Shown here piece after piece: positions 3,657 through 3,757 of a DNA stretch of 44,890 nucleotides. A program made the translations under genes and the position numbers. Source of the DNA: Escherichia phage Ivi; sequence record PV841871.1; one strand, written 5' to 3'. Numbering within the stretch: position 1 is the first letter of the stretch; every line of letters starts with the position of its first letter. The notes beneath the pieces were generated by a model. It searched no databases and was not told the origin of the DNA. It was given only the letters and a program-made list of their open reading frames with translations.

Positions 3657-3685
3657 TTGACACCTAAGACTAATCCGACGATACT
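3657..3685 (+). promoter_or_regulatory. candidate promoter TTGACA-N17-GATACT in an ORF-free gap
   Basis: Perfect -35, weak -10; no ORF before the terminator at 3727-3757. Confidence 0.3.
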
Positions 3686-3691
3686 TAAATC

Positions 3692-3757
3692 ACCTCCTGT
3701 TCCATCCCTCTGCTCTCCAGTTTTATCCCGGCCCCGACCCAGCCGGGATTTTTTTTT
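3692..3757 (+). ncRNA. candidate small RNA, C/U-rich with CACCUCCU (anti-Shine-Dalgarno-like), ending at an intrinsic terminator
   Basis: Promoter-like element upstream, strong terminator downstream, no coding potential between. Confidence 0.25.
3727..3757 (+). terminator. Rho-independent terminator (CCCGGC...GCCGGG stem followed by a T9 run)
   Basis: cccggccccgacccagccgggattttttttt. Confidence 0.7.

Follow-up and report, generated by a model that had tools for sequence, protein, structure and literature searches.

Does the gene-free stretch behind the lysis genes of this phage encode a small RNA, or does it hold just a spare terminator? We addressed this question in a window of 44,890 nucleotides, the whole stretch of DNA that was analysed. 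Performing BLAST of 3300-3900 and 3640-3830 against the deposited phages, we find that the window belongs to a Kagunavirus-like siphophage of the subfamily Guernseyvirinae. Its gene order runs from the holins through the endolysin (end 3319) and the region under study to about 10 small genes, which include those for DUF2737 and NinH-like proteins, and then to the terminase and the structural genes. The original prediction had read the region as an independent promoter-to-terminator unit for a non-coding RNA of ~65 nt, or alternatively as a second, back-up terminator. We call the promoter of this unit P1 and its terminator T2, the terminator upstream of it T1, and the next promoter downstream P2. 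The features are placed as follows:

3496 to 3527, + strand: T1, an upstream terminator outside the conserved unit (by fold)
3657 to 3662, + strand: −35 hexamer of P1, TTGACA (by sequence and consensus scan)
3663 to 3679, + strand: spacer of P1, 17 bp, free in sequence (by alignment of relatives)
3680 to 3685, + strand: −10 hexamer of P1, GATACT (by consensus scan and alignment)
3686 to 3691, + strand: discriminator of P1, 6 nt, hypervariable (by alignment)
3692 to 3724, + strand: single-stranded, C/U-rich 5′ arm of the predicted RNA (by fold and alignment; the putative +1 is A3692)
3692 to 3699, + strand: arm motif ACCUCCUG
3703 to 3711, + strand: arm motif CAUCCCUCU
3712 to 3718, + strand: arm motif GCUCUCC
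3721 to 3724, + strand: U-rich stretch of the arm
3725 to 3749, + strand: hairpin of T2, 8 bp (AUCCCGGC/GCCGGGAU) with a 9-nt loop at 3733-3741 (by fold)
3750 to 3757, + strand: U-run of T2 (U8), the predicted 3′ end of the RNA (by sequence)
3774 to 3809, + strand: P2, TTGACT (3781-3786), 17 bp and TATATT (3804-3809), with a palindrome copy (3774-3789) over the −35
3816 to 3843, + strand: leader of the P2 transcript, purine-rich and nearly invariant (putative start ~3816; it ends at the ATG of the first gene)

The stretch 3656-3830 matched 444 records of the deposited phages by BLAST, at 90-97% identity in Kagunavirus and 71-79% in Salmonella Jerseyvirus. We compared three sets of loci. The first came from BLAST matches and was not chosen by any pattern within the element. 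The second consisted of IMG/VR contigs retrieved by a pattern inside the RNA (CATCCCTCT...ATCCCGG), and the third of IMG/VR contigs retrieved by a pattern in the neighbouring P2 only. None of the three retrievals required P1; the pattern of the second set, however, lies within the element. Conservation was counted over 49-53 unique versions from Kagunavirus and Jerseyvirus, and entropy was calculated over 49. A third lineage is represented by the Serratia phages Tsm2, Otaku and Smarc3 (unclassified Guernseyvirinae), which carry a diverged copy directly after the lysozyme gene. This copy reads TTGCCA (−35), 17 bp, TACATT or TATATT (−10), 6 nt, GCUCCUG, a C/U-rich arm, a hairpin and U7-11. A covariance model of the element found exactly one copy per genome, at 65-88 bits.

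We found no copy of the element in 5,426 complete E. coli genomes. The plasmid collection contains it in just one record, of 44 kb, which is presumably a phage genome that was filed as a plasmid. The pattern CATCCCTCT...ATCCCGG gave at least 120 chance matches in genome contigs, and none of the matches listed had a terminator. In protein sequence, the large terminase (5923-7173) shares only ~54% identity with its counterparts in Jerseyvirus and in several phages that bear the name Escherichia phage, whereas the P1-T2-P2 non-coding cassette keeps 71-79% DNA identity to Jerseyvirus. This difference suggests that the cassette travels across otherwise mosaic genomes. We rejected the idea of a replication origin or R-loop in the region, as the turning point of the cumulative GC skew lies at ~43 kb, elsewhere in the genome.

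P1 (TTGACA-17-GATACT, 3657-3685) scored 10 of 12 in a consensus scan for near-consensus hexamers at a spacing of 16-18 bp. The −35 is where it had been proposed. The −10 had been called weak, but GATACT is not a poor hexamer, retaining the critical A2 and T6. The two hexamers and their spacing are those of lambda PL, a strong promoter. As a match in a single sequence, P1 is no better than chance (3 sites versus 2.5 ± 1.5 in shuffles), and the genome-wide counts of consensus promoter matches are the same as in shuffles. Thus, the case for P1 rests on the comparison with relatives.

Here the picture is clear. Among the 49 unique versions, the mean column entropy is 0.01 for the −35 and −10 hexamers. 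GATACT is invariant in 49 of 49; five of the six −35 columns are invariant, and the sixth shows a single variant (TTGACG in L195). The spacer is constant in length, with an entropy of 0.64 and 2 of its 17 columns invariant. The discriminator has an entropy of 0.90 and no invariant column among its 6, and the 15 nt upstream of the −35 have 1.33. One contig (L378) carries a wholly different spacer, yet retains TTGACA and CATACT. The hexamers and their spacing are constrained while the spacer sequence is not, which is the pattern of selective constraint for a sigma-70 promoter.

The sequence 5′ of the −35 is unrelated in at least six contexts, among which are two endolysin C-termini, the ends of two small ORFs, T1 and a 120-bp insert. 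Thus, the conserved block starts exactly at the −35 of P1, with a mosaic junction at its 5′ edge. The endolysin stop codon of most relatives either falls within the −35 or immediately precedes it. At one locus (L213, an IMGVR_UViG contig), we observed a 105-bp insertion that separates the −10 from the C/U-rich arm and falls precisely on the predicted start of transcription. Its ends are 14-bp terminal inverted repeats (GTTAGGCGAGTAGT...ACTACTCGCCTAAC), and it resembles a miniature mobile element.

The RNA predicted from these boundaries spans 3692-3757 and is 66 nt long, in agreement with the pyrimidine-rich RNA of ~65 nt first proposed; its length across relatives is 64-71 nt. Neither the MFE fold nor the centroid fold pairs any of the first 33 nt. 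This arm (3692-3724) holds 27 pyrimidines in 33 positions, a share that ranks among the highest 0.08% when every 33-nt window of either strand is considered. CACCUCCU lies at 3691-3698, and an RNA started at the predicted +1, A3692, would begin with ACCUCCU. In Kagunavirus, this 5′ end is identical to the core of the 16S anti-Shine-Dalgarno sequence.

Conservation restarts exactly at the predicted +1. In Jerseyvirus, the discriminators AAACCT, AAACAT, GGTGTT, GGTGTC and AAACCC are each followed by an invariant GCTCCTG. The motif (G/A)C(C)UCCUG at +1 is common to the three lineages, with CUCCUG in all, and the 6-nt gap between the −10 and the conserved arm is fixed in the three. CAUCCCUCU is common to Kagunavirus and Jerseyvirus, but the Serratia phages lack it. 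The hexamers, the geometry and the boundary at +1 together lend strong comparative support to the independent unit that had been proposed. Preceding the hairpin we find GUUUUA (3720-3725), with UUUA or CUUA in the other lineages. The U-rich stretch, the hairpin and the tail of 7-14 U suggest a module for Hfq binding, as the published module runs from a U-rich stretch through a hairpin to a long poly(U) tail (PMC12205990).

T2 has the 8-bp hairpin and U8 of the second terminator that had been placed at 3727-3757, with an MFE of −13.8 kcal/mol (z = −2.6). Its U-run varies from 7 to 14 U among relatives. In 19 distinct sequences across the three lineages, the pairing of the hairpin is maintained at 98.7%. 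Compensatory double changes occur in 3 of the 8 pairs, and a control with slid partners gave none. The GC-rich hairpin, the U-run and the maintained pairing identify T2 as an intrinsic terminator. The annotation of phage Schulenburg marks T2 as a terminator, the only part of the element annotated there. A terminator scan with a loop limit of 8 missed both T1 and T2 (the T2 loop has 9 nt), and our own scan detects both. While the stem covaries, the core of the loop, CUGACC, hardly changes among Kagunavirus, Jerseyvirus and the Serratia phages; terminator loops are not normally constrained.

We propose the following mechanism. Host RNA polymerase would recognise P1 as a sigma-70 promoter by its consensus −35, optimal 17-bp spacing and GATACT −10, start at about A3692 and stop in the U-run of T2 (3750-3757), giving an RNA of ~58-66 nt. 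The layout of this RNA would be that of an Hfq-binding, base-pairing sRNA, with a 33-nt 5′ seed arm, a U-rich stretch, a GC-rich hairpin and a U tail. It would most likely pair with purine-rich, Shine-Dalgarno-type sequences of mRNAs and thereby lower translation. In the ancestral layout, P1 would abut or overlap the endolysin stop and T2 would also end the lysis operon, so that the RNA would at the same time be the 3′ UTR of the lysis mRNA. We infer that P1 fires, where precisely its +1 lies, that the RNA binds Hfq and base-pairs, and any target it may have.

Complementarity of the RNA to Shine-Dalgarno sequences had been pointed out before. Of 84 translation-start regions of the phage, 61 contain 5 nt or more that are complementary to the arm, as against 33.7 ± 9.6 for random genomic 33-mers (p ~0.002). 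The complementarity is real. In a k-mer test over the same 84 regions, it equals that of composition-matched shuffles (p ~0.3), and therefore it reflects the C/U richness of the arm, not the order of its letters.

Duplex energies gave a similar result. In a scan of both genome strands, the best non-self duplex of the arm (17 bp, ~31240-31276, − strand, −33.9 kcal/mol) falls within the range of shuffled seeds (minima −28.8 to −36.3). Against the 84 heuristically called start regions, the mean is −15.6 versus −14.8 ± 0.8 for shuffles. We rejected the adjacent invariant P2 leader as a target, since it ranks only 24th of the 84. Comparing the window with Jerseyvirus SE2 over 36 orthologous starts, we obtained the gene at 241 as the best conserved target (rank product 0.0011), with p ~0.27 after correction for multiple testing. 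In summary, a conserved 5′ motif, (G/A)C(C)UCCUG, is present, and the target prediction against phage ribosome-binding sites, suggested earlier as a check, gave no specific phage target above the shuffled controls.

A promoter, a non-coding stretch of 65 bases rich in pyrimidines and a terminator are preserved in three Guernseyvirinae lineages, and thus the element is probably a small-RNA gene, one that has not been described. What we observe directly are the anatomy of the sequence, the way it is conserved, the covariation in the hairpin and a lack of coding potential. On their basis we are fairly confident that the transcription unit from P1 to T2 is real. A role of the predicted RNA in trans is a more tentative reading, to which we give slightly less than an even chance. 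For the region as a small non-coding RNA gene that works by the mechanism proposed above, we consider the chances evenly balanced.

A bolder version of this reading needs no single target. The phages of a virulent subfamily might constitutively make an abundant RNA whose 5′ end copies the anti-Shine-Dalgarno tail of 16S rRNA. Such an RNA might have a global effect, either hiding strong ribosome-binding sites or occupying Hfq to saturation, and CUGACC in the T2 loop might be a second contact. We regard this as a long shot.

The RNA could instead be a by-product of a promoter that is real. P1 and T2 would then form a gate to the packaging and structural operon, by antitermination or leaky read-through, and the C/U stretch would be a leader. 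Such a gate is suggested by a strong promoter and a strong terminator within ~65 nt, directly upstream of the nin-like genes (DUF2737, NinH-like), the terminase and the structural genes. This architecture is known from lambdoid phages, where the by-product RNA, StxS, was later shown to bind Hfq and to act as a regulator (PMC7547250). However, an invariant, consensus-like P2 starts 24 nt past the U-run of T2, so that the downstream genes need no read-through. Neither Pfam scans of 9 small proteins encoded downstream nor the careful annotation of the relative Schulenburg revealed an antiterminator of the Q or N type. In lambda, the Q-binding and pause elements lie in the promoter spacer and the discriminator; the segments that would hold such signals are the most variable parts here. 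Moreover, a mere by-product would have no need of a transcribed arm that is conserved from +1 onwards, as it is here. We therefore consider the gate unlikely.

P2 is a neighbouring part of the conserved cassette, with both hexamers invariant and the spacer variable among the 49 unique versions. Its leader has a mean entropy of 0.19 and is purine at 27 of 33 positions. The 28-nt leader is almost invariant across two genera, and the gene at its ATG varies, with at least five different N-termini; thus, a mosaic junction lies at the start codon.

The palindrome over the −35 of P2 is operator-like (AATAG-N4-CTATTCA) and occurs 10 times, as against 0.14 expected. Copies are at 85-100, 3774-3789, 10816-10831, 10909-10924, 20010-20025, 36886-36901, 39803-39818, 39848-39863 and 43542-43557. 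It lies in the spacer of strong minus-strand TTGACA...TATAGT promoters (36909, 39827, 33291), and just after TATAAT in a longer conserved element, GCACACCCCAAYATAATAGG.TACTATTCAC (85, 10816, 20010, 43542). The Golestan genome paper has the motif among its PHIRE 'promoters'. The palindrome is probably the binding site of a phage regulator. It is absent from P1, and since P1 lacks the operator-like palindromes of the phage's other strong promoters, constitutive firing is to be expected. Thus, P1 is probably constitutive.

T1 consists of a 10-bp hairpin (3496-3522) followed by AUUUU to 3527, with an MFE of −18.2 kcal/mol for 3480-3540. A hairpin with a U-run is thus present where the lysis-operon terminator had been placed (3497-3527), but it belongs to a lineage-specific insert and is not the general terminator of the lysis genes. 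It is found in the window, K1ind1, Schulenburg and Golestan. It is absent from PST-H1, RP180, ZCEC5, all Jerseyvirus and the Serratia phages; in these, the endolysin stop codon sits in the −35 of P1 or right in front of it, and T2 is the sole terminator after the lysis genes. By this distribution, T2 is the ancestral, universal terminator of the lysis operon, and T1 is the lineage-specific addition. The original alternative of a back-up terminator at 3727-3757 had the two the wrong way round, as that terminator is present in all relatives and 3497-3527 is the add-on.

The extra DNA of the window (3320-3655) consists of three pieces: a 24-codon ORF (3390-3463), T1 and a 120-bp ORF-free piece. 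The 24-codon ORF (MALQEFTNPVKSRDDIDKQAGYGE) has a GGAGG ribosome-binding site. Its peptide is also encoded in the contigs L172, L206, L215 and L388, where the stop codon lies inside the −35 of P1. Two further contigs, L166 and L242, have a 30-aa hydrophobic peptide in the same slot. The interval from the endolysin gene to P1 resembles a hot spot for very small accessory genes. A promoter-like site at 3435 (11 of 12), which we considered as the start of a second sRNA unit before T1, was rejected because it lies inside the conserved 24-codon ORF and its TTGACA is missing in relatives. The 120-bp insert between T1 and P1 (3536-3655) carries GTTGA on both flanks and is common to EcoPhCCP1 and a few contigs; EcoPhCCP1 annotates an overlapping hypothetical protein. 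This insert had no Rfam match, and its fold z-score is only −1.4.

The conserved block might alternatively work in cis on the lysis operon. A C-rich, G-poor untranslated tail resembling a Rho-loading site, together with the terminator, would insulate the operon from P2 or stabilise the lysis mRNA, and the hexamers would be kept for other reasons, for example as a protein-binding site. In most relatives, the block begins directly at the endolysin stop, and no terminator other than T2 separates the lysis genes from P2. A 78-nt segment (3663-3740) has a C/G count of 32/9, within the top 0.2% of windows; the other top C/G windows of the + strand are where genes run on the − strand. Part of the conservation could indeed serve the 3′ end of the lysis mRNA or termination itself. 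However, a role in cis leaves unexplained the two invariant hexamers at 17 bp with a drifting spacer, and the fixed 6-nt gap to the conserved arm in three lineages. Rho would have little space to act, and little reason to, when an intrinsic terminator follows ~70 nt past the stop codon. The unit is also intact in the window and its closest relatives, although T1 already ends the lysis transcripts upstream there. We rate a purely local role as quite improbable.

A chance promoter-like match before an ordinary back-up terminator is very improbable. It would fit the frequency of such matches in shuffles and the lack of conservation of the nearby 11/12 match at 3435, but it is contradicted by the footprint, the fixed geometry and the mosaic boundaries in ~50 unique versions from three lineages, and by T2 being universal and T1 optional.

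A very small protein is hardly credible: there are deposited CDSs here in TU03 (L007:1035-1136) and just upstream in EcoPhCCP1, and mechanical ORFs overlap the region on both strands, but the predicted RNA of the window (3692-3757) holds no ATG, GTG or TTG, the start ATG of the TU03 CDS is exclusive to its lineage, the ATG (3758-3760) of the minus-strand ORF 3593-3760 is made by a C unique to the window, and no frame survives the 2- and 4-nt indels by which the genera differ. No start codon or frame is conserved across relatives, and the earlier view that the stretch has no credible ORF holds. The short 'hypothetical protein' CDSs on or beside it in some deposits are probably spurious, and these annotations may be corrected.

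Apart from the main element, we noticed another promoter-terminator candidate at 42542-42641 (+ strand), in a 58-bp gap between two minus-strand genes. It combines a promoter-like TTGCGA-17-TAAAAT with a strong terminator (42609-42641), and its predicted RNA of ~65 nt would be antisense to the ribosome-binding site and start of a gene for a 755-aa helicase/primase. At the equivalent place, SE2 and Schulenburg each have a + strand terminator preceded by a promoter-like site. The candidate scores 19 bits with the RNA model of the main element.

Temperate phages and prophages are well known to encode regulatory small RNAs, and many phages of this virulent enterobacterial subfamily have been proposed for therapy. 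What is at stake here is whether virulent siphophages use sRNAs constitutively. The comparative signal sets the promoter, the start point, the seed and the terminator to the base, in Kagunavirus, Jerseyvirus and Serratia phages that are easily grown and engineered. Searching the literature on sRNAs, promoters and transcriptomes of Kagunavirus, Jerseyvirus and Guernseyvirinae, we found no prior description of the element, and the Golestan genome paper lists neither P1 nor T2. The sole RNA-seq study of Guernseyvirinae gives gene-level values only (PMC12645636). A review of phage-derived sRNAs from 2025 makes no mention of lytic or virulent phages.

Performing an Rfam search of the region at a permissive E-value, we obtained only sub-threshold matches, driven by the terminator; we found no tRNA or tmRNA genes. 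The best match was RF02278, the 'toxic small RNA' family of Betaproteobacteria, at 24.5 bits against a gathering score of 50. We rejected membership in this family: the alignment covers no more than the terminator and a UCUCC motif, the first hairpin of the model (23 positions) has no counterpart here, and the taxon is different. Its members, ncS03/05/27/62 of Burkholderia, have CU-rich anti-RBS stretches and inhibit the growth of E. coli when cloned (PMC5688073). These RNAs are functional analogues of the element, not relatives.

A second comparison is with StxS, or lambda 6S RNA, a short transcript of the constitutive late promoter PR′ that terminates at tR′; this abundant RNA binds Hfq and regulates in trans (PMC7547250). 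Both systems have a phage promoter, a strong terminator almost at once and then late genes. In contrast to PR′-tR′, we found here no Q-type antiterminator (among the 9 downstream proteins and in the Schulenburg annotation), the spacer and discriminator are variable, and an independent, conserved P2 follows T2; the element does not belong with Q-antiterminated units. Unlike the phages with PR′-tR′, this phage is virulent, not temperate, and the two elements have no sequence similarity.

Type I 3′-UTR sRNAs such as DapZ and MicL are base-pairing RNAs that depend on Hfq; each is transcribed from a promoter of its own, located at the 3′ end of an upstream gene, and ends at the terminator of that gene. 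The element resembles them in that P1 overlaps or abuts the endolysin stop and the predicted RNA ends at the lysis-operon terminator. The likeness extends to the unstructured 5′ seed, the U-rich stretch, the hairpin, the long poly(U) and the length of ~65 nt. Unlike these RNAs, the element resides in virulent siphophages and not in a bacterial chromosome, and the seed of its predicted RNA is unusually long and almost purely C/U.
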